UHGV virus genome: UHGV-0318018
Source of the DNA: a virus
DNA length: 11,661 bases
Reading direction: 5' to 3' (one strand)
Shown here: positions 1 through 11,661 of the stretch, piece after piece
Layout of the letters: every line of letters begins with the position of its first letter
Numbering within the stretch: the first letter of the stretch is position 1
Made by a program: the position numbers and the translations under genes
The notes under the pieces: generated by a model
Told to the model about the DNA's origin: nothing
What the model saw: the letters and a program-made list of their open reading frames with translations, nothing else
The model's database searches: none

Positions 1-23
1 TTGTTGCTGATAATGGCGAACAT

Positions 24-692
24 ATGGACTTCATTGCCGCAAATCAATGCCGGAGTCAGCCGGATGACGCAAAGCGGATAGAGTGTTATGACAAAGCTGT
101 AACTCCAACACGCACCAAAACATTAGAAAAGTTTGAAAGCAGGGATCAATGCAGGGATGAGGCGTGGGAGAAAAAAAGGCTGTCTTGCTATGATCGTTTT
201 TTTTCTCCAACATTTACTAATGCCAAGGTTGACAATGTACATAAAGACAGTAGGGATGTTGGGGACTGGAAAGTTGATATAAAAACATCTCCAATCGATG
301 ACTCTAAAAATGTTGTTATCTTTGTGAATGGTAATGATTCTTTTAGGTCCCCGTTTGGAGACAACATAACTCCAACTCTTTATATTGCGTGTAGGGAAAA
401 TAAAACAGAGCTGTTTATAGATTGGGATGTATACTTGGGGCTGAGTGAAACTACGATGATTCATCGAATAGATAAACAAAAAGCCATAAACAGAAAGTGG
501 TCTATTTCAACAAATACAAAGGCCGTCTTTTATGATGGTAATGTGATTGATTTTATAAGAAAGTTACAAAGTGGTAATCAGTTATTTGCTCAGATAACCC
601 CATATAGTGAAAGTCCGGTGAGCACAACCTTTAATCTCAAAGGTCTTTCTGAAGTTATTAAACCATTACAAGAATCATGTAACTGGAAATAG
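24..692 (+). CDS. Hypothetical protein in an AT-rich accessory gene; possibly 5'-truncated by the window edge
   Basis: 222-codon ORF, stop TAG at 690-692. The frame is open from position 3, so the true start may lie upstream. Composition is visibly more AT-rich than the phage tail genes. Contains a duplicated motif C-x9-R-[IL]-x-C-Y-D (CRSQPDDAKRIECYD and CRDEAWEKKRLSCYD). No family recognised by eye. Confidence 0.5.
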   Translation: MDFIAANQCRSQPDDAKRIECYDKAVTPTRTKTLEKFESRDQCRDEAWEKKRLSCYDRFFSPTFTNAKVDNVHKDSRDVGDWKVDIKTSPIDDSKNVVIFVNGNDSFRSPFGDNITPTLYIACRENKTELFIDWDVYLGLSETTMIHRIDKQKAINRKWSISTNTKAVFYDGNVIDFIRKLQSGNQLFAQITPYSESPVSTTFNLKGLSEVIKPLQESCNWK

Positions 693-719
693 CTATTGGT
701 GTTGTTTTCCGAATAATAA

Positions 720-752
720 CCCCGCGATTGTATATAGCGGGGTTATTATTTT
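720..752. terminator. Bidirectional rho-independent terminator between convergent genes
   Basis: Stem CCCCGC (720-725) pairs with GCGGGG (737-742) around an 11-nt loop, followed by TTATTATTTT (743-752) on + and a T-rich run on the - strand. Sits between the stop of the 24-692 ORF and the stop of the 770-1066 ORF. Confidence 0.5.
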
Positions 753-769
753 GGCCTGATTGTCAGGTA

Positions 770-1066
770 TCAGCCATATTTGCGGGCGAAATCTTCATCT
801 GAGGTGCATAGATAGATAAAAAATTCAATAAAAGCCACGATTGCCGGGATAAATGTCCAGCAAAAAATAAGGTAAAGAAATCCCTGCCCCACTTTACCTA
901 AATAAAATTTGTGTGCACCAAGACCACCTAAAAAGAAAGCCAGTAGTGCGGCTGTCATTCTGCTTTTTGAACTTGCTGTTCTTTGAGGTGCTCCACAATT
1001 GGGGCAGGATGTGGCATCTTTATGTATTTCCTTGCCGCATCCGCGGCAAAATACCATTTCACTCAT
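770..1066 (-). CDS. Small membrane protein with N-terminal zinc-ribbon (CxxC...CxxC) and TM2-like hydrophobic C-terminal domain
   Basis: 98-codon ORF. N-terminus CRGCG...CPNCG is a C4 zinc ribbon, followed by two hydrophobic segments (LLAFFLGGLGAHKFYLG and LYLIFCWTFIPAIVAFIEFFIYL). SD-like AAGGA sits 7 nt upstream of the ATG at 1066. Confidence 0.6.
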   Translation of the reverse strand: MSEMVFCRGCGKEIHKDATSCPNCGAPQRTASSKSRMTAALLAFFLGGLGAHKFYLGKVGQGFLYLIFCWTFIPAIVAFIEFFIYLCTSDEDFARKYG

Positions 1067-1170
1067 AAAGAGTTCCTTTCAAATTTAAACAAGCGTTAAG
1101 CCCACCACTCTTACTGGCGGGCCTCAATTTAAATTTGGGTGCCACTTCGACCTTACCCTGGCAACCGATT

Positions 1171-1192
1171 GACGGGGGATTGCTCCCCCGTC
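1171..1192. other. Perfect 9-bp stem hairpin (GACGGGGGA-TTGC-TCCCCCGTC) in the hok 3' flank
   Basis: Read directly from the sequence. Followed on + by GCGGTTTCC. Could be a transcript 3' structure of the hok mRNA or a terminator; function not established. Confidence 0.3.
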
Positions 1193-1201
1193 GCGGTTTC
1201 C

Positions 1202-1342
1202 TTACTGCTTACACTGTAAGAACGCCGCAAACTCCGCTCCCCAGAAGCTCATCCGTATTTCGCACAGCGAACCGTGCAGCATCCAGATGATGAGGATTGC
1301 CGTCACGCAGAACGTGATGGCCGTAAGCGATTTTTGCGACAT
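1202..1342 (-). CDS. hok: Hok/Gef-family type I toxin (small membrane-depolarising peptide)
   Basis: Hand translation of the - strand gives ATG(1342-1340) MSQKSLTAITFCVTAILIIWMLHGSLCEIRMSFWGAEFAAFLQCKQ stop TAA(1204-1202), 46 aa. It has an N-terminal TM helix followed by the SLCEIR motif and an E-x-AAF C-terminal region typical of Hok/HokA-E peptides. AAGGAG SD lies 8 nt upstream. It is absent from the ORF track because it is under 60 aa. Confidence 0.6.
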   Translation of the reverse strand: MSQKSLTAITFCVTAILIIWMLHGSLCEIRMSFWGAEFAAFLQCKQ

Positions 1343-1472
1343 AGCACTTGCTCCTTTTCCGGAGAGGCGCTAACCTTTCACTTGTCAAGGTAATGCGGTT
1401 AGGGCCTCGGTTAAACAGAAATGTTTTCCGGGGCCTTTCCACATCTGGCCTTCGGGTATTCCCTCCGACCAT
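1209..1472 (-). CDS. mok-like overlapping reading frame (modulation of killing) covering the hok gene in another frame
   Basis: 87-codon ORF that starts 130 nt upstream of the hok ATG and ends 7 nt before the hok stop, in a different frame. This geometry matches the mok/hok arrangement of plasmid R1. The sequence itself is not conserved enough to confirm. Confidence 0.3.
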   Translation of the reverse strand: MVGGNTRRPDVERPRKTFLFNRGPNRITLTSERLAPLRKRSKCYVAKIAYGHHVLRDGNPHHLDAARFAVRNTDELLGSGVCGVLTV

Positions 1473-1532
1473 CAGCCGAAAGGCACCCGCGCGTAATCTA
1501 TCGCTTTTTTGTTACTCCGGCAATTCTGTTAG

Positions 1533-1793
1533 TTAATTCTGAGATAAAGGCAAACTCATCTGATTGTTTCCCCTGTGTGAAGCTGGCAGCTCATGCCACG
1601 GGATACCTTCTGAAGAGTGAACGCCGGAGGCGTGTTTTGATGTGAATTTATGGAAAGCTTCCAGTGTTGAGAAGCATACGCCGCATTCCAGGTTGTTACA
1701 CTGGTAATACTTTTGCCGCACGGTGTTTGAATCATTTTCCGGACGACTGGTGCGGATACGGGCAGATGCGCCACAAAGCGGACAACGGAACAT
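1533..1793 (-). CDS. ogr: Ogr/Delta-family zinc-finger late transcription activator
   Basis: 86 aa beginning MFRCPLCG...YYQCNNLECGVCF, with the four Cys of the Ogr zinc finger at positions 4, 7, 32 and 37. Strong SD AAGGGAGG sits 5 nt upstream of the ATG at 1793. Lies immediately downstream of gpD as in P2. Confidence 0.85.
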   Translation of the reverse strand: MFRCPLCGASARIRTSRPENDSNTVRQKYYQCNNLECGVCFSTLEAFHKFTSKHASGVHSSEGIPWHELPASHRGNNQMSLPLSQN

Positions 1794-1835
1794 AGCGACC
1801 TCCCTTAACGTGGTGCTGCTGCTATTCTAAGTTGC

Positions 1836-2945
1836 TCACTCTGTTTCTGCTATCCATTCCGGGATTTTTGCCTCAAGCTCAAGCTGCGTGGTAAAGCCGC
1901 TGTTATCGATGGTGTGCTCGGCTTTTGCAATAATCCAGTCCTGATTATCAATCTCGCTTTTAAATCCTGTTACCGTGCCATGCATTTCGGGGTAGAGTTC
2001 TGCACGACCACGTGCCAGCGTGATGGAGAATGATGCGGCTCCGCGTTGTAGCTGCTGCCACTTTGCCGCCGCTGCGCGTCTTGCTGCCTGCTCGTTCTGA
2101 TAAGTCTTGCGTAACACAAACACATTGCCTTCCGCGCCTTCCATATAATCACCTTCACGGCTGCTGCTTTTCTCCTTTTTGGGTTTTGGCGGTTTGCGGC
2201 GTTTCACGCTGACTTTTTTCTTTTTCCCGTAATTAAGATCAAGCCAGTAAGCGCGTACCCCCGTATACGCCTCGCGGTCAGCAATGCGGAACTGATGGCG
2301 ATCGCCGCTACTGCGTGTGATGGCGAACGATGGCAACGGCTGGCCCTGTGCGTTCACGCCACCGCCGGGCATGATGAATAACAGATTACCGCTTTTTACC
2401 GTGGTGATTGCGCCCAGCATTTCCGCCATGCGCGTAAGGAAGGACATGTCACTTTCTTCGGTCTGGTCGGCGTGGTCGATTTCGATATCCATCAGCATTT
2501 CGCTGATTTGCGGTTTCAGACCGTACCGATGAGCGATGGCGGATACCACACGCTCAACGGTCACATCATGCCAGGACACCTCACGTTTAACGTTAAATTC
2601 ATCCCGAAAATCTGCGCTTCTGGCTGAAACAGTCAGCCTGTCCGGCGGTCCTTCGTGAGCGATTTCATCAACAATGTAAGTGCCTTTTTCTGTCAGCGGT
2701 TCTCCTTTCCAGCCAATGAGAACCGTCAGGCGCGCGCCCCGTGGCGGTAGCTGCAACTGACCATCTGCATCATCCAGCGTGATGGTGAGCTGGTCTGCTT
2801 CAAATCCCCGGTTGTCGGTCAGTGACAGGCTCATCAGGCGCTCTGCCACGCCTGACAGCGTTTTACCCTCCGCGAGAATATCAAAATCCGGCATTTTCAC
2901 GGGGTCTGTGCTCTGACTGAGCAATTGCATGGTGGTGTCGGTCAT
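1836..2945 (-). CDS. P2 gpD-like tail protein (late control gene D family)
   Basis: Long ORF 1836-2966. The preferred start is the ATG at 2945 (MTDTTMQLL...), preceded by GGGAGGG at 5-nt spacing. Size (about 369 aa) and position next to ogr match P2 gpD. Contains an unusual Lys/Arg-rich patch GKKKKVSVKRRKPPKPKKEK. Confidence 0.85.
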   Translation of the reverse strand: MTDTTMQLLSQSTDPVKMPDFDILAEGKTLSGVAERLMSLSLTDNRGFEADQLTITLDDADGQLQLPPRGARLTVLIGWKGEPLTEKGTYIVDEIAHEGPPDRLTVSARSADFRDEFNVKREVSWHDVTVERVVSAIAHRYGLKPQISEMLMDIEIDHADQTEESDMSFLTRMAEMLGAITTVKSGNLLFIMPGGGVNAQGQPLPSFAITRSSGDRHQFRIADREAYTGVRAYWLDLNYGKKKKVSVKRRKPPKPKKEKSSSREGDYMEGAEGNVFVLRKTYQNEQAARRAAAAKWQQLQRGAASFSITLARGRAELYPEMHGTVTGFKSEIDNQDWIIAKAEHTIDNSGFTTQLELEAKIPEWIAETE

Positions 2946-3101
2946 CTTTCCCTCCCTGTGCGGCATGGTCGCATGTGCGTGCGGAGGGGGTTACTGCTTT
3001 TTGTTGTCGCCGTGGCGGGAGAACGGCGCAGGGGTGAGATTACGCGCGTGGTGGGTGATGATTGTTGCCGAATCATTTAACGGATACAAGGGGCTGAAGC
3101 T
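2946..3101. promoter_or_regulatory. Divergent intergenic region expected to carry promoters for D-ogr (leftward) and the FI-U operon (rightward)
   Basis: 156-bp gap between divergent start codons, each with a good SD. No exact Ogr box (TGT-N12-ACA) was found by eye, so promoter positions are not assigned. Confidence 0.35.
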
Positions 3102-4286
3102 ATGAGTGAAACTCGTTTTCATGGTGCCCGTGTCACGGAAAGTACCGACCTGGTAACAGCGGTTAATGATGTTGATTCCAGCGTTATCGGTATCGTGGCA
3201 ACGGCGGATGATGCGGATGCGGAGCTGTTCCCGCTGAACAAGCCCACACTGCTGACCCGCGTCAATGACGTGCTGGGAAAATGCGGTACTACGGGGACGC
3301 TTTATCGTGCGCTTAAGGCTATCGCAGACCAGGTGAGCACAAAGGTGATCGTCGTTCGCGTGGCTGAACACAAAAAAGAAGGCGGTAAGACGCAGGATCA
3401 ACTGGTTATCGGTGGTTCTGAGGATGACGGCAGCTATACGGGGATGTATGCGCTGCTTGTTGCAGAGCAGGATGAAAGCATCGGATACCGTCCGCGCATT
3501 CTGGCTGCGCCGGAGCTGGACACGGAGGCGGTGACAAAATCTCTGTGCGTGATTGCAGGTAAACTGCGCGCGTTTGTGTATGCCTCATGTCATGGCTGTG
3601 ACACGATGGCCGAGGCAATTACCTACCGCCAGAAATTCAACGAACGTGAGGTGATGCTCTTATGGCCGGACTTTATCGCCTACAACCCGAAAAGTGGCAA
3701 AAACGAAACGTTCCCCGCGCCTGCCTATGCGTGCGGCCTTCGTGCGTACATTGACCATGAGCAGGGCTGGCACAAATCGCTGTCCAACGTTCCGGTTAAA
3801 AATGTGCTGGGGATGTCCAGGCATGTGTTCTGGTCGTTGCAGGCCGAAGACAGTGATGCCAACAGCCTCAACAACAAAGAAATCACGACCATTATTCGTC
3901 GCAACGGGTTCCGCTTCTGGGGCAACCGCACACCGGAAACGAACGCCTACATCTTTGAGGTGTATACCCGAACCGCACAGGTGCTGGCTGATTCAATTGC
4001 GGAAGCGCAGTTTGAAACCATCGACAGTCCACTGACGCCTGCGAATGTGAAGGATGTTATCAGTGCCATCAGGGCAAAACTGGATTCACTGGTTACTGCC
4101 GGGAAACTGATTGGGGCGTCGTGCTGGTATGACGTGGTGGATAACGGCACCACGAATTTACGTCAGGGGCGCGTGCGTATTCGCTACAAATATACGCCTG
4201 TTCCCCCGCTGGAAGACATGGAGCTTTACCAGTCGTTTACTGATGAATTCTTTGGTCCCGCATTTGCGGTGCTGGGAGGTGCCTGA
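3102..4286 (+). CDS. Contractile tail sheath protein (P2 gpFI family)
   Basis: 394 aa. Conserved sheath blocks visible, e.g. DADAE.FPLNKP, KLRAF.Y, WPDF.A, EQGWHK.LSNV, IRR.GFRFWGNRT, NYTRTAQV, YTPVPPLE. AAGGGG SD upstream of the ATG. Confidence 0.9.
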   Translation: MSETRFHGARVTESTDLVTAVNDVDSSVIGIVATADDADAELFPLNKPTLLTRVNDVLGKCGTTGTLYRALKAIADQVSTKVIVVRVAEHKKEGGKTQDQLVIGGSEDDGSYTGMYALLVAEQDESIGYRPRILAAPELDTEAVTKSLCVIAGKLRAFVYASCHGCDTMAEAITYRQKFNEREVMLLWPDFIAYNPKSGKNETFPAPAYACGLRAYIDHEQGWHKSLSNVPVKNVLGMSRHVFWSLQAEDSDANSLNNKEITTIIRRNGFRFWGNRTPETNAYIFEVYTRTAQVLADSIAEAQFETIDSPLTPANVKDVISAIRAKLDSLVTAGKLIGASCWYDVVDNGTTNLRQGRVRIRYKYTPVPPLEDMELYQSFTDEFFGPAFAVLGGA

Positions 4287-4798
4287 TGGCTGTACCAAAA
4301 CATCTTCGCTTTTTTACGCTGTTTGTGGATGGTGAAAACGAAGTGGGTAAGGTGACGTCCGTCACTCTACCTAAGCTGACGCGCAAAACCGACAGCTACC
4401 GGGGTGGTGGCATGATGGGTGCGGTAAGTATTGATCTCGGTCTGGACGACTCCGCGCTTGATGCGAGCTTTGTCATGGGGGGCGCAGTTCGTGAGCTGTT
4501 CCTTAAGTATGGCGGCACGATTGACGGCACGCTGCTGCGTTTTGCGGGTGAATACTACACCGATGCAGAAAGCGACCTGTATGAAGTCGAAATGCGCGGA
4601 CGTGTGACGGAAATTGATATGGGGGAAGCCAAACAGGGCGAAGCCACATCACACAATTACGCCATTAAAAACACCTACTACAAGCTGAGTGTTAACGATC
4701 GCCCGTTGTGGGAGATTGACCTGCTGAACTTCATTTACCGGAAGGACGGCAAGGACATTGTGCCCGATCGCATCCGTTCCGCGCTCGGGCTTGGCTGA
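4286..4798 (+). CDS. Tail tube protein (P2 gpFII family)
   Basis: 170 aa. The start overlaps the FI stop by 1 nt (TGATG), with GGGAGG SD. Motifs VTLPKLTRK..YRG.GM and LRFAG.Y are typical of FII tube proteins. Confidence 0.9.
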   Translation: MAVPKHLRFFTLFVDGENEVGKVTSVTLPKLTRKTDSYRGGGMMGAVSIDLGLDDSALDASFVMGGAVRELFLKYGGTIDGTLLRFAGEYYTDAESDLYEVEMRGRVTEIDMGEAKQGEATSHNYAIKNTYYKLSVNDRPLWEIDLLNFIYRKDGKDIVPDRIRSALGLG

Positions 4799-4852
4799 TA
4801 AGTAATATGCAGGCGGCGCAGTGCGTCGCCTCTGACTGAAAGGAGTTTCCTG

Positions 4853-5218
4853 ATGAAAGAGACGAAAAACATCGATACCGAAAACACGGTAGTTACTGAC
4901 ACTGTGAAAGAAACCAGTGAGCGTGGCGTAAAACTTACCCAACCAATTGAGCGAGGCGGCGAAAAAATCACGTATGTGGAGATCACCGGGGCTATTGAGC
5001 AGGCTGGATCTCTGCGAGATTTGTCGCTGTCTGATGTGCTGAATCTGAAAGCGGAATCCATGTTTACGCTGCTGTCACGCGTGACATCACCGCGACTGGA
5101 TGAAGTGACGATCAAAAAAATGGCATCCCGTGACTTTATTCAGTTATGTGTGGTTGCCGTAAATTTTTTGAGCGGTGCGGACTCTGGCGGGAAGAACGAA
5201 CAGGCGACGGAAGCCTGA
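4853..5218 (+). CDS. Tail assembly chaperone gpE (zero-frame product)
   Basis: 121-codon ORF with AAAGGAG SD 7 nt upstream. It sits between the tube and tape measure genes and carries a slippery TTTTTTG near its 3' end, as in P2 E. Confidence 0.7.
   Translation: MKETKNIDTENTVVTDTVKETSERGVKLTQPIERGGEKITYVEITGAIEQAGSLRDLSLSDVLNLKAESMFTLLSRVTSPRLDEVTIKKMASRDFIQLCVVAVNFLSGADSGGKNEQATEA
5164..5170 (+). other. Programmed -1 ribosomal frameshift slippery heptamer TTTTTTG (E to E')
   Basis: T TTT TTG in the E frame (codons NFL). The -1 frame continues open to the TGA at 5380-5382. The same heptamer mediates the E/E' frameshift in P2. Confidence 0.6.
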
Positions 5219-5382
5219 TCACGGTTGTGTGCTTTGAGCACATAGAAGACTTTGTGGCGGATATTGCCGCCATTTTTAACTGGTCGCCCGCCGAAATCTT
5301 CATGATGACGCCCGGCGAAGTGGTTAGCTGGCGTGAGCGGGCGGCACTTCGCAGCGGGAATGCAGACAATGAAGACTCTTGA
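5170..5382 (+). CDS. E' extension; the fusion product E+E' is made by a -1 frameshift at 5164-5170
   Basis: The -1 frame is open from the slippery site to 5382 (ERCGLWREE...FVADIAAIFNWSPAEIF...LRSGNADNEDS). This is the G/GT-like chaperone arrangement upstream of the tape measure gene. Confidence 0.6.
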   Translation, partial: ERCGLWREERTGDGSLITVVCFEHIEDFVADIAAIFNWSPAEIFMMTPGEVVSWRERAALRSGNADNEDS

Positions 5383-8176
5383 TATCCGGGTCGCTTTCAG
5401 CGCCGTTGACAGGCTGACCCGGCCTGCCGAAAACGCCCGCCGCCTGATGGGGCAGTTTGGTGACTCCATCCAGCGAACGCAGGGGGCGATCAAAAATCTC
5501 GAGCGTCAGGCGCGATCATTTGAGCGCGCCCGCGACGCTGTCAGTAAAGCGGATGCGGGTATCGTGAAAGCACGACGCCAGCTTAACGCCCTTAATCAGT
5601 TACAACGCACGGGTACAGTGCTCAGCGAAAAACAACAAAAGCTGATGCAGCAGTTAAGCACCCGGCTTGAACGCCTGAATGAATCGCGCACACGGGAAAT
5701 TCAAAAAATGCGGGAGCTTGGCGGAGAGCTGAAACGCCACGGCATTTCCCTGACAGGCAGCGATAACACCATCCAGCAGGCCATCAGACGCACCGAACAG
5801 TACAACAACCAGCTTGAACGCGAACGGCAGGCGCTTGCACGTGTAACGCGGGCGCGTGAGCGGTATTCGCGCGCGCAGGAAACAGCGGGAAAACTGAAAA
5901 CAGGTGGTGCGCTGGCAACTGGTGCGGCAGCGGCGGGCGGCTATGCTGCCGGGCGTTTTTTGCAGCCTGCGATCGGGTTCGGCAAAGAGATGTCCCGCGT
6001 TCAGGCACTGACGCGAATCGACAAAAACAGCCCGCAGTTTAAGGCGCTGCGTGAGCAGGCGTTAAAACTTGGCTCTGAAACACAGTTTACTGCGAGTGAT
6101 GCCGCCAGTGGACAGAGCTTTCTGGCAATGGCTGGTTTTACTCCGCAGGCCATTCAGGCTGCACTTCCCGGCGTGCTGAGCATGGCAACGGCTGGCGGTA
6201 TGGATCTCGGCGAGACGGCGGATATTGGCTCAAATATCCTGACGCAGTTCGGCCTTTCTGCTGACCAGATGGACCGGGTCGGTGACACGCTCACCGCAGC
6301 GTTTACCCGTACCAACACTGACCTTCGCGCACTTGGCGAAACCATGAAATATGCAGGTCCGGTGGCGGGCAAGCTGGGAATATCGCTGGAGCAGGCCGCA
6401 GCGATGGCGGGCGTACTGGCGAATATGGGTATCAGGGGAAGTGATGCCGGGACGGCAATGCGTGCCAGCCTGGCTCGTCTGGCATCACCGCCAAAGGCGG
6501 CGGCAGAAGCTCTGAAAGAGCTGGGCGTGTCCGTCTCTGATGCGAATGGCAAAATGCGCCCGATGGAAGATCTGCTGGCTGACCTTTATAAAGCCACCCG
6601 CAAATACGGGGAAGTTGACCGGGTATCGTTCTTTAAGGACATTGCCGGGGGAGAGGCTTTCACATCGTTTATGGCACTCGTTGATGCGGCGGGTGACGGT
6701 TCCTTACCCAAACTGAGAAAAGAACTTGAGGGCGCACGCGGTGAGGCTGAACGCACGGCAAAGGTGATGGCCGACAACCTTGATGGCGACCTGAAAAATC
6801 TGGACAGCGCATGGGAAGGTCTGCGTATTCGCATTGCAGATCTGATTGACGGTCCGCTGCGTTCTGTCACGCAGTGGCTCACGCGGGTGGTCTCAAAGGT
6901 GACGGCGCTGGCGCAGGCCCATCCGGCACTGACGCGCCAGCTACTGATAGCAGGCGGTGCGCTGCTGGCAATGACTGCAACGGTCGGCTCGTTGTCGCTG
7001 GTTATTGGGGTGCTTTACGGGAAGCTGGCCACCCTGCGTCTTGGTTTCGACATTCTTACCCGGTCAATGAATGTCGTCAGGGTGTTGCCTGCGCTGTGGG
7101 GAATGGTGACGGGTTCCGTTTCTTTACTGGGAGGCGCCATCGGGGCGTTGTTCAGTCCGGTTGGTCTTATCGTGGCTGCGCTTGCCGGAGCTGCCGTTCT
7201 TATCTGGAAATACTGGGATCCCATCAGGGCATTTTTTGCCGGGGTGTTCAGCGGGATTATGGAAAGGCTGACCCCGTTGCGCGAAACCTTTGAACGGTTT
7301 GGTCCTGTTTTTGACGCAATCGGAAGCGGGATCAGCCAGGTGTTTAACTGGTTTAAATCGCTGCTGTCACCGATGGAATCCAGCAAGGAAACGCTGGATA
7401 AATGTACCAGTGCTGGCGAGATATTCGGTAACGTTCTTGGTGGCGCGTTACAACTTGTTCTGACGCCTGCAAAAATGCTGCTGGATACGCTGGCGTGGAT
7501 ACTTGAAAAACTTGGCGTCCTTCCGGATGAAGCGGAAAGGGCGCGCAAGAAAATCGAAGACGCACAGCGTGCGGCCATTCTTCAGGACAAGGTTGCCTTG
7601 CTTCAGGGGGACCTGGCGAAAATCAATCCGCCGAAGCCTGTGGAAAATGGCAATGGCACCGGAGGTGATAAACCCAAAGACAACAAACCGCTCACAGACA
7701 GCAATACCGGGACGCTACGCAGACTCAGCAAAATTGCTGATAACACAGGTAAGCTGGTTGATGAGACGAAAAAACGCATTGGCCCCGGCGATATTGTCTT
7801 TAAGAACCTGCCCCGCGCACTTGCTGTTCGTGGGGAGTGGCAGGAGCGGAAGATTGCGCAGGTCAGTAAGTCTGCCCCCGCAATGAATATCACACCCGTG
7901 GTTCCGGCTCCGCTGCCTCCGGCGCTGGTCCCTGTTGTTGCGACCAGCTCCCGCCCGGTGGCAGAGGCCATACGATCGCCAGTGGCATCAGTTCCTGCAA
8001 CTTCCCGTAACCGGGAACCTGTTGCCTCCGGATTTGGCGGTGAAATTCATGTTCATCTGCATAACGTTGTTACGCAGAATCCCCGCGAACTGGCGAAACT
8101 GGTCGGTGAAATGGTCAGGGCAGAAATGGAACGGCGCGCCCGTGCCGGGCGTGGCAGTTTTTACGATAAAGATTGA
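5369..8176 (+). CDS. Tail tape measure protein (P2 gpT family)
   Basis: Long ORF open from the GTG at 5333; in-frame ATGs at 5360 and 5369. 5369 is preferred because GGGAA lies 8 nt upstream. Shows a coiled-coil-rich N-terminus, a TMP core (DLRALGETMKYAGPVAGKLGISLEQAAAMAGVLANMGIRGSDAGTAMRASLARL) and Gly/Ala-rich hydrophobic segments. Confidence 0.85.
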   Translation: MKTLDIRVAFSAVDRLTRPAENARRLMGQFGDSIQRTQGAIKNLERQARSFERARDAVSKADAGIVKARRQLNALNQLQRTGTVLSEKQQKLMQQLSTRLERLNESRTREIQKMRELGGELKRHGISLTGSDNTIQQAIRRTEQYNNQLERERQALARVTRARERYSRAQETAGKLKTGGALATGAAAAGGYAAGRFLQPAIGFGKEMSRVQALTRIDKNSPQFKALREQALKLGSETQFTASDAASGQSFLAMAGFTPQAIQAALPGVLSMATAGGMDLGETADIGSNILTQFGLSADQMDRVGDTLTAAFTRTNTDLRALGETMKYAGPVAGKLGISLEQAAAMAGVLANMGIRGSDAGTAMRASLARLASPPKAAAEALKELGVSVSDANGKMRPMEDLLADLYKATRKYGEVDRVSFFKDIAGGEAFTSFMALVDAAGDGSLPKLRKELEGARGEAERTAKVMADNLDGDLKNLDSAWEGLRIRIADLIDGPLRSVTQWLTRVVSKVTALAQAHPALTRQLLIAGGALLAMTATVGSLSLVIGVLYGKLATLRLGFDILTRSMNVVRVLPALWGMVTGSVSLLGGAIGALFSPVGLIVAALAGAAVLIWKYWDPIRAFFAGVFSGIMERLTPLRETFERFGPVFDAIGSGISQVFNWFKSLLSPMESSKETLDKCTSAGEIFGNVLGGALQLVLTPAKMLLDTLAWILEKLGVLPDEAERARKKIEDAQRAAILQDKVALLQGDLAKINPPKPVENGNGTGGDKPKDNKPLTDSNTGTLRRLSKIADNTGKLVDETKKRIGPGDIVFKNLPRALAVRGEWQERKIAQVSKSAPAMNITPVVPAPLPPALVPVVATSSRPVAEAIRSPVASVPATSRNREPVASGFGGEIHVHLHNVVTQNPRELAKLVGEMVRAEMERRARAGRGSFYDKD

Positions 8177-8188
8177 GGAGTCATGGCC

Positions 8189-8677
8189 ATGATGATGATC
8201 TACGGCATGTTTGTTTTTGAGCTGCGCACGCTGCCGCATCAGCAGTTACAGCAAAACAAAAGCTGGCGGCATGTGAAAAATGAACGCGTTAACCGTTCAG
8301 CAAGCTGGCAGTATATCGGTGCAGGTGATGATCGCATCGTGCTTTCTGGTGTGCTTTATCCTGAAATTACAGGTGGCGAAGTGTCGCTGTCGCTGCTGAC
8401 CACGCAGGCGTATACAGGACACCCCTGGCCTCTGATTGATGGCGTCGGGCAGATTTACGGCATGTATGTCCTGACCGACACGAATACGACCCGTTCCGAG
8501 TTTGATTGCTACGGCAAGGCGAAAAAGATAGAGTTTTCACTGACACTTGAACGCTGTGATGAAGATTTGCGGGAGCGACTACAATCCTCATCGTTCAGCG
8601 ATATGCTGTCCGGCCTCAAAGATAAGGTGACGTCATCCCTTAACAGCGCGGCCAGCTCCGTTAAAGGGCTGTTTTGA
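8189..8677 (+). CDS. Tail protein gpU (P2 U family)
   Basis: ORF from 8183 (MAMMMIYGMFVFELRTLPHQQLQQNKSWRH...). The ATG at 8189 is favoured because GAGGAG at 8175-8180 then has 8-nt spacing. Motifs LQQ..SWRH and LSG.LYPE.TGG are shared with P2 gpU. Confidence 0.85.
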   Translation: MMMIYGMFVFELRTLPHQQLQQNKSWRHVKNERVNRSASWQYIGAGDDRIVLSGVLYPEITGGEVSLSLLTTQAYTGHPWPLIDGVGQIYGMYVLTDTNTTRSEFDCYGKAKKIEFSLTLERCDEDLRERLQSSSFSDMLSGLKDKVTSSLNSAASSVKGLF

Positions 8678-8684
8678 TTAACGC

Positions 8685-8714
8685 AAAACCGCTAATGGTC
8701 AGATTAGCGGTTTT
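8685..8714. terminator. Bidirectional terminator hairpin between U and the invertase gene
   Basis: AAAACCGCTAAT (8685-8696) pairs with ATTAGCGGTTTT (8703-8714) around a 6-nt loop, with T-runs on both strands. The invertase stop codon lies within the right arm. Confidence 0.5.
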
Positions 8715-9303
8715 CATTTTCCTGAGTCTGCCTGGTTGTTTCTTCAGCCTGTATATCGCCTACAGGGTGATAACGATAAATCGTCGATATGCCGATGTCG
8801 TAAATGATCGCCAGTTGTTTCCTGTCATGACCGTTTTTAATCAGCCTCGCTATTTGCTCGTGTTGTTCTTTTGTCAACTTCGGGCGACGTCCGCCAATGC
8901 GTCCTTGTGCGCGTGCTGCTGCCAGCCCGGCCAGTGTACGCTCTACAATTAATTCACGTTCCATTTCGGCTAAAGCCCCCATGACGTGAAAAAAGAAACG
9001 CCCCATGGGTGTTGATGTGTCAATGCTGTCCGTCAGACTACGGAAATTAACACCTTTTTCCCGCAATTCCTCAATAAGCGTGATCAGGTGTTTCATACTT
9101 CTGCCCAGTCTGTCCAGCTTCCAGACAACCAGCGTATCTCCTTCTGATAGCGTTCTGAGCAGTTTTTTCAATCCCGGTCTGGCTGATTTCGTTCCGCTGA
9201 TTTTATCTTCAAAAATCAGTTCACATCCTGCGCAGTTCAGTGCATTGCGTTGTAAATCCGTGTTTTGGTCATTTGTTGACACACGAATATAGCCAATTTG
9301 CAT
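8704..9303 (-). CDS. Serine DNA invertase, Pin/Gin/Cin/Hin family
   Basis: The true start is the ATG at 9303 (MQIGYIRVSTNDQNTDLQRNAL...), with AAAGAGGA SD. Resolvase catalytic N-terminus with active-site Ser in GYIRVSTNDQ, plus the motifs LVVWKLDRLGRS, GRFFFHVMGALAEMERELIVERTLAGLAAARAQGRIGGRRP and a C-terminal HTH. The longer ORF-track start at 9432 is an upstream artefact. Confidence 0.9.
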   Translation of the reverse strand: MQIGYIRVSTNDQNTDLQRNALNCAGCELIFEDKISGTKSARPGLKKLLRTLSEGDTLVVWKLDRLGRSMKHLITLIEELREKGVNFRSLTDSIDTSTPMGRFFFHVMGALAEMERELIVERTLAGLAAARAQGRIGGRRPKLTKEQHEQIARLIKNGHDRKQLAIIYDIGISTIYRYHPVGDIQAEETTRQTQENENR

Positions 9304-9357
9304 AAAAAACATCCTCTTTGTTTCGTGAAAAATACATAGTTGGTATAGGTAGGGATA

Positions 9358-9383
9358 AAGACGAAAACGTTGGTTTAGGAGAA
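9358..9383. promoter_or_regulatory. Candidate 26-bp invertase crossover site (cix/gix-like), overlapping the invertase promoter region
   Basis: AAGACGAAAACG-TT-GGTTTAGGAGAA. The right half, read on the other strand, is TTCTCCTAAACC, resembling Hin-family half-sites (TT.TC..AAACC). The left half is degenerate. It lies 55-80 bp upstream of the invertase ATG, where gixR/cixL-type sites sit. Not verified. Confidence 0.25.
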
Positions 9384-9521
9384 GGCTCGGCGCTACCCGT
9401 TGGTGTGCCTGTTCCGTGGCCCACCGCCACACCGCCAGCAGGCTGGTTAAAGTGCGACGGGCGCGCCTTTACAAAAGAACAATATCCTGTTCTGGCCAGA
9501 GTCTACCCGACCCTCCGTCTT
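9366..9521 (+). pseudogene. Tail-fibre collar fragment (NVGLGEGSALPVGVPVPWPTATPPAGWLKCDGRAFTKEQYPVLARVYPTLRL), truncated at a recombination junction
   Basis: Conserved tail-fibre collar motif G.P.PWP..PAGWL.C.G..F....YP.LA..YP. Homology ends abruptly at 9521/9522, where inverted repeat IR-A begins. There is no start codon and no N-terminal shaft. Confidence 0.45.
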
Positions 9522-9631
9522 ATATCAGCACGGCACCTGAAATCAGCTGGCCGGAAGCGCCACTGGCACTTGCCAGCTGAACGGTATCACGCCGCCCTCA
9601 CGATATAGTTAAACGCGATATTGCGGGGGCG
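9522..9631. repeat. IR-A left arm (110 bp), inverted copy of 10103-10212
   Basis: Reverse complement of 10103-10212 with 4 mismatches by hand alignment. Contains the fibre 3' end (RPRNIAFNYIVRAA stop) on the - strand and a Tfa 3' end on the + strand. Confidence 0.85.
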
Positions 9632-10148
9632 GGTTATGTTAAAGAATGCTCCGTTTAATTCGGCTTTTGCGCGACTGTTTGTTCCACCCAGAATTGCGTA
9701 CCACTTGCCTGTTGGTGTGCCTGTTCCGTGGCCCACCGCCACACCGCCAGCAGGCTGGTTACAGTGCAACGGAGCTACGTTCACCAAAGGACAATATCCT
9801 GTTCTGGCCAGAGTCTACCCGACCCTCCGTCTTCCCGATTTGCGCGGTGAGTTTATCCGTGGATGGGACGGTGGTCGCAAGGTTGATACCGGGCGTGCGC
9901 TACTTTCATTTCAGGAAGGGACTATCGTATCCGGTTTTGATGATAATGATACCGGAGATATCAGTTCGCTCGGCTCTACACAATATGGATTTGGTGACGC
10001 TTTAACCTCTAATCAACTGGGGGTCATAAATGACAAAAAGTGGATATTTGATGCATCCTCTAAAGGTGCACAAAGATATGACTGGTGGGCTTATGTATCA
10101 GCTCGCCCCCGCAATATCGCATTTAACTATATCGTGAGGGCGGCGTGA
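9621..10148 (+). CDS. Tail-fibre C-terminal cassette 1 (collar plus receptor-binding tip), lacking the N-terminal shaft
   Basis: Open frame containing LPVGVPVPWPTATPPAGWLQCNGATFTKGQYPVLARVYPTLRLPDLRGEFIRGWDGGRKVDTGRA..., ending RPRNIAFNYIVRAA. Collar motifs match Mu S / P1 S / P2 H-type fibres. Only a TTG or an internal ATG (9636) is available as a start, so it is probably silent unless fused to a constant region. Confidence 0.55.
   Translation: MRGRVMLKNAPFNSAFARLFVPPRIAYHLPVGVPVPWPTATPPAGWLQCNGATFTKGQYPVLARVYPTLRLPDLRGEFIRGWDGGRKVDTGRALLSFQEGTIVSGFDDNDTGDISSLGSTQYGFGDALTSNQLGVINDKKWIFDASSKGAQRYDWWAYVSARPRNIAFNYIVRAA
9756..9870. repeat. IR-B left arm (115 bp, collar-coding), inverted copy of 11098-11212
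   Basis: Reverse complement of 11098-11212 with 2 mismatches. Encodes WLQCNGATFTK.QYPVLARVYPTLRLPDLRGEFIRGWD in both cassettes. Confidence 0.85.
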
Positions 10149-10212
10149 TACCGTTCAGCCGGCAAGCGCCAGTGGCGCTTCCGGCCAGCTGATTTCAGGT
10201 GCCTTGCTGATA
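10103..10212. repeat. IR-A right arm (110 bp)
   Basis: See IR-A left arm. Spans the convergent 3' ends of cassette 1 (+) and the tail-fibre assembly gene (-). Confidence 0.85.
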
Positions 10213-10769
10213 TTCAGTGCGTTCAGCTCGTCGATATAATCCAGCACGGCGTTCAGTTTTGCCGTTTCTTCTGGTGTCAGACTGCGACCAGCACGCAGTT
10301 TGAGGTTGATAAGATCGACGGACGCCATCGCCTGTTTCACCCGTTGCTGGCGTTGCTGTCTGGCAACCTCCAGTTCTGCGGCTCGCTGCCGTTCAGTATC
10401 GGTTACCCACGCCTCACCGTTCCAGGTATCCCATGGCGTGGCTGGCTGTTTTGTGGTGGTGTCCGCCGGGTAATCACCCGGTTGGGTAATCAGAACGGGG
10501 TTACCGTTCTCCGTGCTGTATACCGTCTCGCCGCGGTGATCAGGCACATGCTCCCACCCGTTCAGCGTGGCAGTCCGGCAAACCACGTAACCCGAAATTG
10601 CCTCCGGCGGTGCATCGGCGCACGAATGTGCCGGAGTACCCACCCCAAGGGCGAGATACTCCACAGAGGATGAGGTGTATTCCCGGGTTTCCTCGTCATA
10701 GTGATATACAGTGATATCGCCCGCTACAGTGGCGATACCGTTTTCATCCAGAACTGCAGTGTTACTCAT
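10155..10769 (-). CDS. Tail fibre assembly protein (Tfa / P2 gpG / Mu U-like chaperone)
   Basis: 204 aa. The ATG at 10769-10767 overlaps the stop of cassette 2 (TAATG), with GAGGG SD. The C-terminal half (TDTERQRAAELEVARQQRQ...PEISWPEAP) has the acidic/coiled-coil and WPE features typical of Tfa chaperones. Confidence 0.8.
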   Translation of the reverse strand: MSNTAVLDENGIATVAGDITVYHYDEETREYTSSSVEYLALGVGTPAHSCADAPPEAISGYVVCRTATLNGWEHVPDHRGETVYSTENGNPVLITQPGDYPADTTTKQPATPWDTWNGEAWVTDTERQRAAELEVARQQRQQRVKQAMASVDLINLKLRAGRSLTPEETAKLNAVLDYIDELNALNISKAPEISWPEAPLALAG

Positions 10770-11220
10770 TAAACTGCCCTCACAATGTAATTAAGTGCAA
10801 TGCTACGGGGTCTGACAGTGATACCCTTCGCATACCCGCTTCTGATAGAGGTCAGAATAGTAGCCTGCATACCATTGTCTGACATTGCCATGACAGGATC
10901 GCTGAATGTTGTCCCGTCCGGCATTTTAAAGCTGCCCTCACGAAGGTCTGTAATGGAATCTTCATTGTTGAATCCCATGCCGACTATCCCCGAGGTTCCC
11001 GTAGTGTCCTGGTTATAATAATCCAGCATTGCTGTTCTTAACAGCGTTGCCCCTTGTGCGGACAGCAACTTACGTCCTGTATCAACTTTGCGCCCGTCGT
11101 CCCATCCACGGATAAACTCACCGCGTAAATCGGGAAGACGGAGGGTCGGGTAGACTCTGGCCAGAACAGGATATTGTTCTTTGGTGAACGTAGCTCCGTT
11201 GCACTGTAACCATGCAACAT
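10769..11220 (-). CDS. Tail-fibre C-terminal cassette 2 (collar plus distinct tip), start-less, translationally coupled to the downstream Tfa
   Basis: Hand translation of the - strand gives one continuous frame: WLQCNGATFTKEQYPVLARVYPTLRLPDLRGEFIRGWDDGRKVDTGRKLLSAQGATLLRTAMLDYYNQD...ITVRPRSIALNYIVRAV stop. It is open back to an in-frame stop at 11245-11243. The ORF-track TTG start at 11068 is internal, and there is no ATG. Confidence 0.55.
11098..11212. repeat. IR-B right arm (115 bp)
   Basis: See IR-B left arm. Confidence 0.85.
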
Positions 11221-11486
11221 TTATTCGTACAGCTTTGCAGGATTATTACGGTTACGATCTGAATACTAATGTCAAAGTAGGTATCGCTTTTGCTACTGCT
11301 GATTCTGTTATAACCGTTGGAAACCCAGCTAATCCTAAAGCAGGAAATAATAGCGATTATGTTCCTGCATCAGCAGATAACTCTATAACGGGTATTCAAA
11401 GGACAGCGGAGGATAATTTTACCGGGGCATGGATATCAATGCGCCCCCGCAATGTTGCGTTTAATTACATCGTAAGGGCCGCATAA
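11211..11486 (+). CDS. Tail-fibre tip cassette 3 (collar-less), start-less
   Basis: Frame reads HATFIRTALQDYYGYDLNTNVKVGIAFATADSVITVGNPANPKAGNNSDYVPASADNSITGIQRTAEDNFTGAWISMRPRNVAFNYIVRAA stop. It aligns with the post-collar part of cassette 2 (ATLLRTAMLDYYNQD...) and shares the C-terminal RPRN.AFNYIVRAA end. There is no in-frame ATG; the ORF-track N-terminus MVNVAPLHCN is the antisense of the collar. Confidence 0.45.
   Translation, partial: HATFIRTALQDYYGYDLNTNVKVGIAFATADSVITVGNPANPKAGNNSDYVPASADNSITGIQRTAEDNFTGAWISMRPRNVAFNYIVRAA
11251..11368. repeat. IR-C left arm (118 bp, perfect), inverted copy of 11544-11661
   Basis: Exact reverse-complement identity over 118 bp, verified base by base. 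The inner end carries a 29-bp near-palindrome GCAGGAAATAATAGCGATTATGTTCCTGC (11340-11368). Confidence 0.9.
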
Positions 11487-11573
11487 AAACGTTGGTTTGG
11501 GGGAAGGCTCTGCATTGCCTGTTGGTGTGCCTGTTCCGTGGCCGCAGGAACATAATCGCTATTATTTCCTGCT
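11476..11573 (+). pseudogene. Truncated collar-start fragment (GPHKNVGLGEGSALPVGVPVPWP) fused at 11543/11544 to inverted cassette sequence
   Basis: Third direct copy of the CTGTTGGTGTGCCTGTTCCGTGGCC collar start. Homology to the other copies ends at 11543, and the frame then runs through the antisense of cassette 3 to a TAG. Confidence 0.4.
11480..11505. promoter_or_regulatory. Second candidate cix/gix-like site, directly after the cassette 3 stop codon
   Basis: CGCATAAAAACG-TT-GGTTTGGGGGAA. The half-site read on the other strand is TTCCCCCAAACC. Same orientation as the 9358-9383 candidate, and followed by the same collar-start sequence. Confidence 0.2.
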
Positions 11574-11661
11574 TTAGGATTAGCTGGGTTTCCAACGGTT
11601 ATAACAGAATCAGCAGTAGCAAAAGCGATACCTACTTTGACATTAGTATTCAGATCGTAAC
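11544..11661. repeat. IR-C right arm (at least 118 bp; truncated by the window end)
   Basis: Exact reverse complement of 11251-11368. On the - strand it encodes the same tip segment (...DLNTNVKVGIAFATADSVITVGNPANPKAGNNSDYVPA), entering from beyond the window. Confidence 0.9.

Follow-up and report, generated by a model that had tools for sequence, protein, structure and literature searches.

The tail-fibre host-range switch of a P88-like Escherichia coli prophage, probably rendered as a patchwork at the end of a contig

In this study, we analysed the right-hand part (8704-11661) of a viral contig of 11,661 nucleotides (UHGV-0318018); the window here means this whole stretch at its full length. 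Judged by its sequence, the region belongs to a P88-like E. coli prophage (Xuanwuvirus, P2 family) and constitutes its tail-fibre host-range switch. The copy in the window departs from the arrangement of its relatives at four blunt joins, and it is probably a canonical switch locus that was rendered as a patchwork when mixed inversion isomers, or paralogous arrays, were assembled at the contig end. Switches of this type, their invertase and their three-site, four-isomer behaviour are already known. The locus is also common, as 1,612 of 5,426 complete E. coli genomes have matches to parts of it.

Components of the locus

A first-pass annotation had described a Gin/Pin-type invertase beside alternative tail-fibre C-terminal cassettes, with at least three cassettes, one Tfa chaperone, truncated collar pieces, three inverted-repeat pairs and three direct collar starts. 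All of these elements were found in the sequence. From left to right, the features are:

8704-9303, minus strand: intact Gin-family serine DNA invertase gene (199 aa, starts MQIGYIRVSTNDQ; Pfam Resolvase and HTH_7)
9358-9383, plus strand: crossover site s1, AAGACGAAAACG-TT-GGTTTAGGAGAA (12-2-12, hix/gix/cix-like)
9384-9521, plus strand: collar fragment 1, the first ~46 codons, ended by join J1 (Pfam Collar profile positions 1-34 only)
9522-9704, no single strand: 183-nt block between joins J1 and J2, holding the ends of a tfa gene (last 19 codons, 9522-9580, plus sense) and of an A2-type cassette (last 38 codons, 9587-9704, minus sense)
9705-10148, plus strand: cassette A1, with a full Pfam Collar domain and a body ending RPRNIAFNYIVRAA, without the first collar codons and the crossover site
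10155-10769, minus strand: tail-fibre assembly chaperone gene tfaB (204 aa; Pfam Caudo_TAP, E 8e-27)
10769-11212, minus strand: cassette B, a body and a collar without its first ~26 codons and the crossover site, ended by join J3 (Pfam Collar profile positions 15-57 only)
11213-11486, plus strand: collar-less body of cassette C, ending RPRNVAFNYIVRAA
11480-11505, plus strand: crossover site s2, CGCATAAAAACG-TT-GGTTTGGGGGAA, in the same orientation as s1
11506-11543, plus strand: collar start fragment of 13 codons, ended by join J4
11544-11661, minus strand: internal C-body fragment, a perfect inverted copy of 11251-11368 that stops at the window edge (L003 8511-8628)

Invertases of the Gin/Hin/Cin/Pin/Min group are small serine recombinases with an N-terminal catalytic domain (Ser in YxRVSTxxQ) and a C-terminal HTH. 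The window invertase has both domains (Resolvase, E 1.5e-51; HTH_7, E 1.4e-12) and matches the Gin structures 3UJ3 and 4M6F at E values of about 1e-90; residues 1-185 align with 4M6F at E 3e-91, most aligned residues over these 185 aa are identical, and the catalytic motif GYIRVSTNDQ (RVSTNDQ) is kept. The exact protein is present on at least 1000 contigs, and at the DNA level the gene matches the invertase gene of the prophage of EPEC E2348/69 with 100% identity. Gin-type systems carry a Fis-dependent recombinational enhancer within the 5' part of the invertase gene. A match to the Fis consensus, G[CT]GCAGGATGTGAAC, lies at +71 of the window gene and is conserved with Mu gin and P88, a conservation in which coding constraint and enhancer are inseparable; the strict pattern found no second Fis match 48 bp away in the gene.

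The cassettes have close counterparts in related prophages, which are referred to by locus numbers (L002 and so on). Cassette A1 is 98% identical to L002 6794-7237 and has no site upstream, cassette B is 98% identical to L003 7870-8313, and the protein of the cassette C body is 98% identical to the C-terminus of the L003 H protein. The exact tfaB allele of the window was found only in Logan SRR28073334 and ENA ERZ28659911. The 183-nt block is an inverted copy of a convergent junction between a cassette end and a tfa end, to which it is 100% identical, with sharp ends, in many E. coli genomes; the block is the reverse complement of L003 7132-7314, and both of its boundaries are blunt. An alignment of the cassettes to tips of the Mu S/S' type had been suggested earlier. 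A BLASTP search with the cassettes found no match to Mu S/S' or U/U' or to the cassettes of P88, and the comparison is thus not applicable to these collar-type tips. An Rfam search of the window likewise gave none. The collar starts occur in three direct copies (~9384, 9705 and 11506), and the inverted repeats are far beyond chance: 152 nt at 91% (9756-9907 and 11061-11212), 118 nt at 100% (11251-11368 and 11544-11661) and 110 nt at 96% (9522-9631 and 10104-10213).

Crossover sites and the canonical array

Gin-type crossover sites are 26 bp long and consist of two imperfect 12-bp half-sites around a 2-bp core. A pattern search of the window gave two matches against 0.04 expected, namely s1 and s2, which are 26-bp sites of the form ...AAAACG-TT-GGTTT... 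with two half-sites each and which recur at homologous places in relatives. The site s1 also stands beside the invertase, at the same position, in L002-L011. The 12-2-12 sites of the relatives lie beside the invertase, behind cassette C and in H, the last as ATTACC-TT-GGTTTGGGGGAA. Relatives with the same invertase have three or four sites (four in L009), compared with two in the window. Both window sites are in direct orientation, and the inverted partner, s3, sits in H beyond the right edge in every relative. An R64-type shufflon (Rci tyrosine recombinase, 19-bp sfx) was considered and rejected: the window encodes a serine resolvase/invertase and has hix/gix-like sites, and the likeness is a functional one only.

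The gene order U, invertase, cassettes, H, I, J, W, V is found in P88 and in the P88-like prophages L002, L003, L006-L009 and L011. In P88 and all related E. coli P88-like prophages examined, the constant part of the fibre gene H and then I, J, W and V are situated to the right, on the minus strand. By synteny, H would therefore lie beyond the right edge of the window on the minus strand, as the first-pass annotation had guessed for the constant fibre region. The prophage insertion adjoins ytfP/tamB in the sister contig L004 and ihfA in E2348/69.

Different inversion isomers of one cassette set, A2, B with tfaB, and C, are present among the relatives. The array reads s1 A2(+) / tfaB(-) B(-) s2 C(-) s3 H in L003, s1 C(+) s2 B(+) tfaB(+) / A2(-) s3 H in L011, and s1 B(+) tfaB(+) / A2(-) s2 C(-) s3 H in L010, L017, L019 and L020. 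In L009, a truncated collar is fused to the tfaB end with 3-nt microhomology, which is a real deletion scar. In the canonical switch, the Gin-family invertase recombines 26-bp sites at the LNYLGLGE/collar boundary of H and before each spare cassette. One site (s1) is beside the invertase, another (s2) follows a cassette and the third (s3) is in H, and two inversions among them give four isomers and three alternative tips. The fibre tip is composed of the collar domain and a short variable body ending RPRN(I/V)AFNYIVRA, one tip having its own Tfa chaperone. The earlier proposal of more than two states holds for the family, with three sites, three cassettes and isomers among genomes, but a more complex shuffling system in the window is not supported.

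Such a system would be a working multi-inversion switch beyond those known, with the collar copies and all three pairs of long inverted repeats serving as substrates and producing many isomers in the manner of p15B Min. It would account for the intact invertase and the many repeats in both orientations, and the family truly has more than two states. However, this explanation is already contradicted by the site map, and we give it hardly any weight. The two site matches of the window share one orientation, and the 110-nt and 118-nt inverted repeats and both arms of the 152-nt collar repeat are devoid of a crossover site. The first-pass annotation had taken the number of cassettes and the junction scars as a sign of more complex shuffling. 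Neither the scars nor the 110-nt and 118-nt repeats are evidence for it; the two repeats are by-products of the joins and not recombination substrates, and the joins are blunt and, among the sequences searched, unique to the window. In the canonical relatives each cassette starts at a crossover site, which is not the case in the window. Two of the three collar starts carry a site, both in the same orientation, and the complete cassettes A1, B and C adjoin no site; both sites run into collar stubs, which are followed by unrelated sequence and a stop. The joins split the three complete bodies from both sites, and the window copy, as written, would be unable to switch between cassettes. In relatives, a fragment oriented like the terminal one (11544-11661) is followed by collar C, site s3 and the constant H region; here, translation towards H yields ...DYVPA and then 25 nonsense residues and a stop. 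By synteny with the relatives (H and s3 being outside the window), the three fusions that s1, s2 or the present state could yield would all have a truncated or garbled C-terminus.

Four blunt joins and their origin

The joins lie within 2.1 kb, at 9521/9522 (J1), 9704/9705 (J2), 11212/11213 (J3) and 11543/11544 (J4). They have 0-nt microhomology when compared with the parental sequences, and they lie 22-150 nt from any crossover core. All four were absent from the 5,426 complete E. coli genomes and the 20 related loci that were searched. In the large collections, two of the four joins were tested in each: J1 and J4 were not found in IMG/VR, J1 and J2 not in the JGI metagenomes, and J3 and J4 not in the GTDB representatives. 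An exact look-up of 14 alternative ORFs spanning or beside the joins in a collection of 15 billion proteins gave no join-spanning ORF, and only an 83-aa form wholly inside body C matched. The near-identical prophage L004, with 1 base different in 9,521, diverges from the window exactly at 9521/9522 and carries on with an intact collar. An exact look-up of the tape-measure protein led only to L004 and L005, neither of which extends beyond 9521. The blocks 9522-9704, 11213-11543 (L010 6393-6723) and 11544-11661 are 100% identical to the array of a different prophage, L010. Canonical arrays all converge at one point only. The window has three points of convergence and two of divergence, a layout that neither site-specific inversion nor simple deletion can produce.

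Several origins of the joins were tried and rejected. Crossover by the invertase is opposed by the distance of the joins from the site cores and by the lack of a half-site and of a 2-bp overlap at them. As reciprocal inversion ends, J3 and J4 would need L003 8314/8667, but they show 8336/8511, and J1 and J2 are also unpaired. Deletions alone from a larger array cannot create the two divergent points. Fold-back priming at J4 is opposed by a turn without complementarity, Hi-C or 3C ligation by the lack of a common restriction site among the joins, and repeat-mediated de Bruijn mis-joins by the fact that abutting blocks share no sequence, although the collar-side breakpoints coincide with the ends of exact repeats.

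We favour, as the probable explanation, that mixed inversion isomers or two paralogous arrays were assembled into a patchwork at the contig end. The four joins would interleave pieces from different isomers or alleles of the canonical array, with the outcome that two direct sites are left, no complete body is attached to a site and the piece toward H is truncated. Pieces typical of different isomers do stand in this one contig. The last base of the window is also where the perfect 118-nt repeat ends; no other exact repeat is longer than 51 nt. Moreover, the breaks of independent assemblies that share this rare tfaB allele fall within the inverted collars. It counts against an assembly origin that no specific assembly step giving blunt local joins could be named. 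Since every k-mer used in de Bruijn assembly must occur in the reads, such an assembler is unable to create a blunt join of its own; therefore, the four joins existed in at least some sequenced molecules. Their presence in molecules is equally compatible with mis-assembly, with amplified chimeric molecules and with an array that was really rearranged.

Possibly, though with clearly less likelihood than an assembly origin, the sequence is correct and the array is genuinely scrambled and decayed through several illegitimate events (deletions, inverted duplications, or the copying of patches from another array of that genome), so that the invertase is intact and the switch is dead. We rank this explanation second. 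If the contig comes from a de Bruijn assembler, the junction k-mers must be in its reads, and the window contains no Ns or ambiguous bases. Natural scars also exist in relatives, such as the collar remnant fused to tfaB in L009 and a truncated A2 body with no collar after it in L016, and J1 alone is readable as a simple deletion in an isomer whose B and tfaB are plus-strand, as they are in the sister prophage L004. However, this explanation needs four blunt events of zero microhomology in 2.1 kb, none shared with the genomes and loci searched, next to 9.5 kb that are one base off an intact relative. Two of the joins make divergent cassette pairs, which is impossible by deletion, and the stop of a perfect repeat exactly at the contig end also speaks against it. 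In addition, the Logan contig with the same rare tfaB allele is unbroken through 10122-10203. The 183-nt block shares exact words of 36 and 38 nt with this stretch; at k=31, which we assume for the Logan assembly, a fork would be expected if the block were in that genome.

If all four joins were real on one molecule, they would point to an undescribed local process that scrambles multi-site arrays by copying inverted patches between paralogous arrays without homology, which we regard as unlikely. Unlikely, too, is one complex, locus-specific event, in which template switching among inverted collars, or off-target invertase cleavage at sequences unlike the site of the enzyme, copied short inverted patches from nearby or paralogous arrays. 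The pattern of a forward run, a short inverted block (183 nt or 331 nt) and a forward run resuming upstream would agree with such an event, and all blocks come from the same kind of array and not from random genomic DNA. Against it, no switch point shows microhomology and no join a half-site, the inverted 183-nt block is an allele different from the window's own copy, and thousands of arrays hold no second example.

Relation to described switches

The Mu G/Gin, P1 C/Cin and e14 P/Pin systems have an invertase of the same family, 26-bp dyad sites with a 2-bp core and a constant N-terminus with invertible C-termini. They are two-state systems, whereas the family of the window has three sites, three cassettes and a Tfa for one cassette only; its tips are short collar-domain tips, unrelated by BLASTP to those of Mu. 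The p15B Min system of Sandmeier, Iida and Arber reportedly has six mix sites and many isomers. One Gin-family invertase shuffles tail-fibre 3' ends there over more than two sites, as in the family of the window; its six sites differ from the canonical three (four in L009) with four isomers, and the extra repeats of the window are not sites. P88 (Xuanwuvirus, Peduoviridae) shares the order and orientation of the tail module, with D and ogr on one strand and FI-FII-E-T-U on the other, followed by invertase, cassettes and H, and its U and invertase are 81-83% identical in DNA to those of the window. However, its segment is Mu-like and two-state, with one visible gix-like site by the invertase (TTATCTAAAACCTCGGTTTACAGGAA) and two Tfa genes, and its cassettes differ from those of the window. 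The P2-like prophage of E2348/69 carries a three-repeat, four-variant invertible tail-fibre locus, and PCR confirmed that its four variants coexist (Goldberg et al., 2014, Genome Med 6:112, PMC4272514); our match of the locus to that paper relies on architecture and inversion sizes instead of coordinates from the paper. It has the order H, cassette, tfa, cassette, invertase, U, T, three 12-2-12 sites at the same places, and collar-type cassettes that are 39-55% identical in protein to those of the window, and its three-site logic recurs in the canonical relatives of the window. The window differs from it in having two visible sites, both direct, in its four blunt, non-canonical joins and in its cassette bodies, which are other alleles.

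As a discovery, the locus matters little, being common and of a described type. The lesson is a methodological one: contigs end at invertible multi-cassette loci, and a patchwork at such an end can mimic a more elaborate system. Repeat counts alone are unreliable; it is useful to ask if every cassette adjoins a crossover site and if the array converges at one point only. If the joins were real, the window would document a dead, scrambled switch beside an intact invertase. If an undescribed scrambling process were at work, with template switching among inverted collars and off-site invertase cleavage as candidates, it would provide a route for the decay of such switches or for new cassette junctions.

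Prophage setting, invertase and crossover sites

A P2-family prophage tail module makes up the window; among phage records, P88-like phages (genus Xuanwuvirus, Peduoviridae) come closest.

Genes, cassettes and sites in the window
1533-1793, minus: Ogr/Delta zinc-finger gene
1836-2966, minus: gpD
3102-4286, plus: sheath FI
4286-4798, plus: tube FII
4853-5218, plus: E
about 5369-8176, plus: tape measure T
8183-8677, plus: gpU
8704-9303, minus: Gin-family invertase, 199 aa (Pfam Resolvase and HTH_7)
9358-9383: crossover site s1, 12-2-12, AAGACGAAAACG-TT-GGTTTAGGAGAA, adjoining the invertase
9705-10148, plus: tail-fibre C-terminal cassette A1 (Pfam phage tail collar domain)
10155-10769, minus: Tfa chaperone gene tfaB (Caudo_TAP)
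10769-11212, minus: cassette B (Pfam phage tail collar domain)
11213-11486, plus: body of cassette C, without collar
11480-11505: second copy of the site, s2, behind cassette C, in the same orientation as s1

As in the window, U of P88-like phages is followed by an opposite-strand DNA invertase and then by tail-fibre pieces. Further right, P88 and those E. coli P88-like prophages that were examined carry, on the minus strand, H (the fibre gene with the constant part) followed by I, J, W and V. Therefore, the position guessed for the constant region in the first-pass annotation, on the minus strand to the right, fits every relative; the region lies outside the window and is placed by synteny. 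At the left end, genes for a VasI-like protein (type VI secretion family PF11319; 24-692, plus) and a TM2/zinc-ribbon protein (770-1066, minus) sit between host tamB-ytfP, seen in the sister contig L004, and the hok/ogr prophage end; they could be cargo of the phage or form an islet of their own.

The invertase keeps the RVSTNDQ catalytic motif and aligned over 185 residues to Gin (structures 3UJ3 and 4M6F; E about 1e-90), which, with its Resolvase and HTH_7 domains, bears out the proposed Pin/Gin type. Its exact sequence is present on at least 1000 contigs, thus the invertase is intact and common. The 12-2-12 site at s1 is of the hix, gix and cix type, and a pattern search of the window returned no crossover site beyond s1 and s2 (two found versus 0.04 expected by chance). 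In relatives, a third site, s3, is located in H (ATTACC-TT-GGTTTGGGGGAA) at the LNYLGLGE codons directly before the collar. A Fis-consensus-like 15-mer, GCGCAGGATGTGAAC, lies at 9233-9219 on the minus strand, +71 of the invertase gene; the Mu gin and P88 invertase genes conserve it at the equivalent position, and it may be part of the recombinational enhancer. The cassettes, Tfa gene, collar pieces and repeats listed previously were all found, and the bodies of A1, B and C share the C-terminal end RPRN(I/V)AFNYIVRA. The Tfa chaperone gene accompanies cassette B only.

Cassette arrays of related loci

Sites, collars, bodies, tfaB, invertase and constant H were mapped across 20 loci (numbered with the prefix L), among which an identical cassette set occurs in differing arrangements.

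Arrangements in related loci (a slash marks the convergence)
L003: s1 A2(+) / tfaB(-) B(-) s2 C(-) s3 H
L011: s1 C(+) s2 B(+) tfaB(+) / A2(-) s3 H; s1 x s3 flip of L003
L010, L017, L019, L020: s1 B(+) tfaB(+) / A2(-) s2 C(-) s3 H; s1 x s2 flip
L008: type with H fused to B
L006, L007, L012, L014, L018: two-cassette versions, both orientations seen

Canonical arrays invariably have a single convergence point, with the cassettes towards the invertase on the plus strand and those towards H on the minus strand, a layout that survives inversion between sites. In isomers with an H-A fusion, tfaB lies on the strand opposite H. This shared architecture supports the proposed kind of system, an invertase-driven tail-fibre tip switch, as does the PCR precedent reported for a P2-like prophage of EPEC E2348/69. 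The locus there has three inverted repeats, and two inversions, spanning about 2,200 and 1,800 bp, give four variants with three alternative C-termini, all four coexisting (Goldberg et al., 2014, PMC4272514). Tail-fibre genes are a recognised target class of programmed inversion (PMC9881135). We found the P88-like prophage of E2348/69 beside ihfA instead of tamB-ytfP, with its three sites where they would be expected, at spacings of 1,564 and 2,003 bp. The invertase gene there shows 100% DNA identity to that of the window, and the cassettes show 39-55% protein identity to those of the window.

L010 (NZ_CP029576.1 15743-19926) and L012-L020 belong to a second, different prophage-like element, with a 190-aa invertase of only 74% DNA identity and the gene order D-V-W-J-I-H. 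The A2, B+tfaB and C cassettes recur in this element with 98-100% identity, and several isomers and several chromosomal locations are represented. Cassettes have evidently been exchanged between unrelated elements. The two-cassette arrays L006 and L007 resemble three-cassette arrays minus cassette C. Compared with L002 (locus coordinates about 6375 and 8362-8815), their H-side site joins the H left half ATTACC to the right half GGTTTAGGAGAA that occupies s2 in L002, which fits a site-specific deletion across the direct repeats s2 and s3, or loss after an inversion swap. A natural scar is present in the complete genome L009 (NZ_OZ040015.1, locus coordinates 5231-5300), where the crossover site and about 45 nt of collar start are joined to the tfaB 3' end with a 3-nt CTG microhomology; this costs one cassette plus roughly 28 nt of tfaB, and a longer tfa ORF (666 nt) is annotated.

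Mosaic blocks and the origin of the joins

Right of 9521, the window is a mosaic of abutting blocks when compared with L002, L003 and L010.

Blocks and joins
8001-9521: colinear with relatives
9522-9704: reverse complement of an A2-type cassette-end/tfa-end junction, matching L010 and many further genomes at 100%
9705-11212: colinear again, 98% to L002, restarting 128 nt upstream in the collar, without a site
11213-11543: C body, s2 and collar start, inverted versus L003, 100% to L010
11544-11661: internal C-body piece in opposite orientation, 100% identity
Joins: J1 9521/2, J2 9704/5, J3 11212/3, J4 11543/4

Compared with the parental sequences, the four joins are blunt and free of microhomology, and they are 22-150 nt away from any site core. 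They are absent from the 20 related loci and are spanned by none of 5,426 complete E. coli genomes, many of which the inner blocks match perfectly. Two of the four joins were scanned in each of IMG/VR, the JGI metagenomes and the GTDB representative genomes, all with negative results. The draft contig L004 differs from window 1-9521 by one mismatch and leaves it exactly at J1, running on into an intact collar.

We consider mis-assembly or chimeric input the probable cause of this patchwork. A 118-nt perfect inverted repeat terminates at the last base of the window, all other exact repeats being at most 51 nt; such an end would arise if a de Bruijn contig path re-entered its own reverse complement at k = 119, which is among the MEGAHIT default k values. 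Only Logan SRR28073334 and the ENA metagenome ERZ28659911 (BioSample SAMN14445676) yielded the exact tfaB allele; in the latter, one scaffold is also identical to window 1-8420. Both assemblies have the A1-tfaB-B segment on a contig of its own, about 1.2-1.3 kb long, that breaks off inside the inverted collars. Moreover, the window combines pieces typical of different isomers and of two alleles (A1 and A2), and three of its blocks match the array of L010, a different prophage type, with full identity. No de Bruijn assembler can create a blunt join of its own, therefore some molecules or chimeric fragments must have carried J1-J4; this, and single deletion scars known in the P88-like family (e.g., L009), speak against a pure artefact. 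A real scrambled array is nevertheless rather unlikely given these contig-end signs and the mixture of isomers, alleles and prophage types. Origins of the joins other than these two are very improbable.

Consequence for switching

With three convergence and two divergence points, the window array cannot be reached by site inversion, nor by deletions alone. None of the complete cassettes A1, B and C is attached to a crossover site. H fused at s1 would give a collar stub, then ...LRLISARHLKSAGRKRHWHLPAERYHAALTI and a stop; fused at s2 it would give ...PVGVPVPWPQEHNRYYFLL and a stop (collar frame, read directly from the sequence); and the H-proximal C fragment continues ...DYVPA into 25 unrelated residues and a stop, with loss of the conserved C-terminus. 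As read here, the locus as written could not work as a switch, because its complete cassettes lack sites and all three reachable fusions end badly. The 110-nt and 118-nt inverted repeats are by-products of the joins and not recombination substrates. The first-pass annotation had seen in the scars and additional repeats a shuffling system more complex than the two-state Mu/P1 segments; with side-product repeats, complete cassettes without sites and only two sites, this does not hold. Its observation is confirmed; it was right about which type of system this is and where the constant region lies, and wrong on greater complexity. This kind of system, and even the invertase of the window, is already described.
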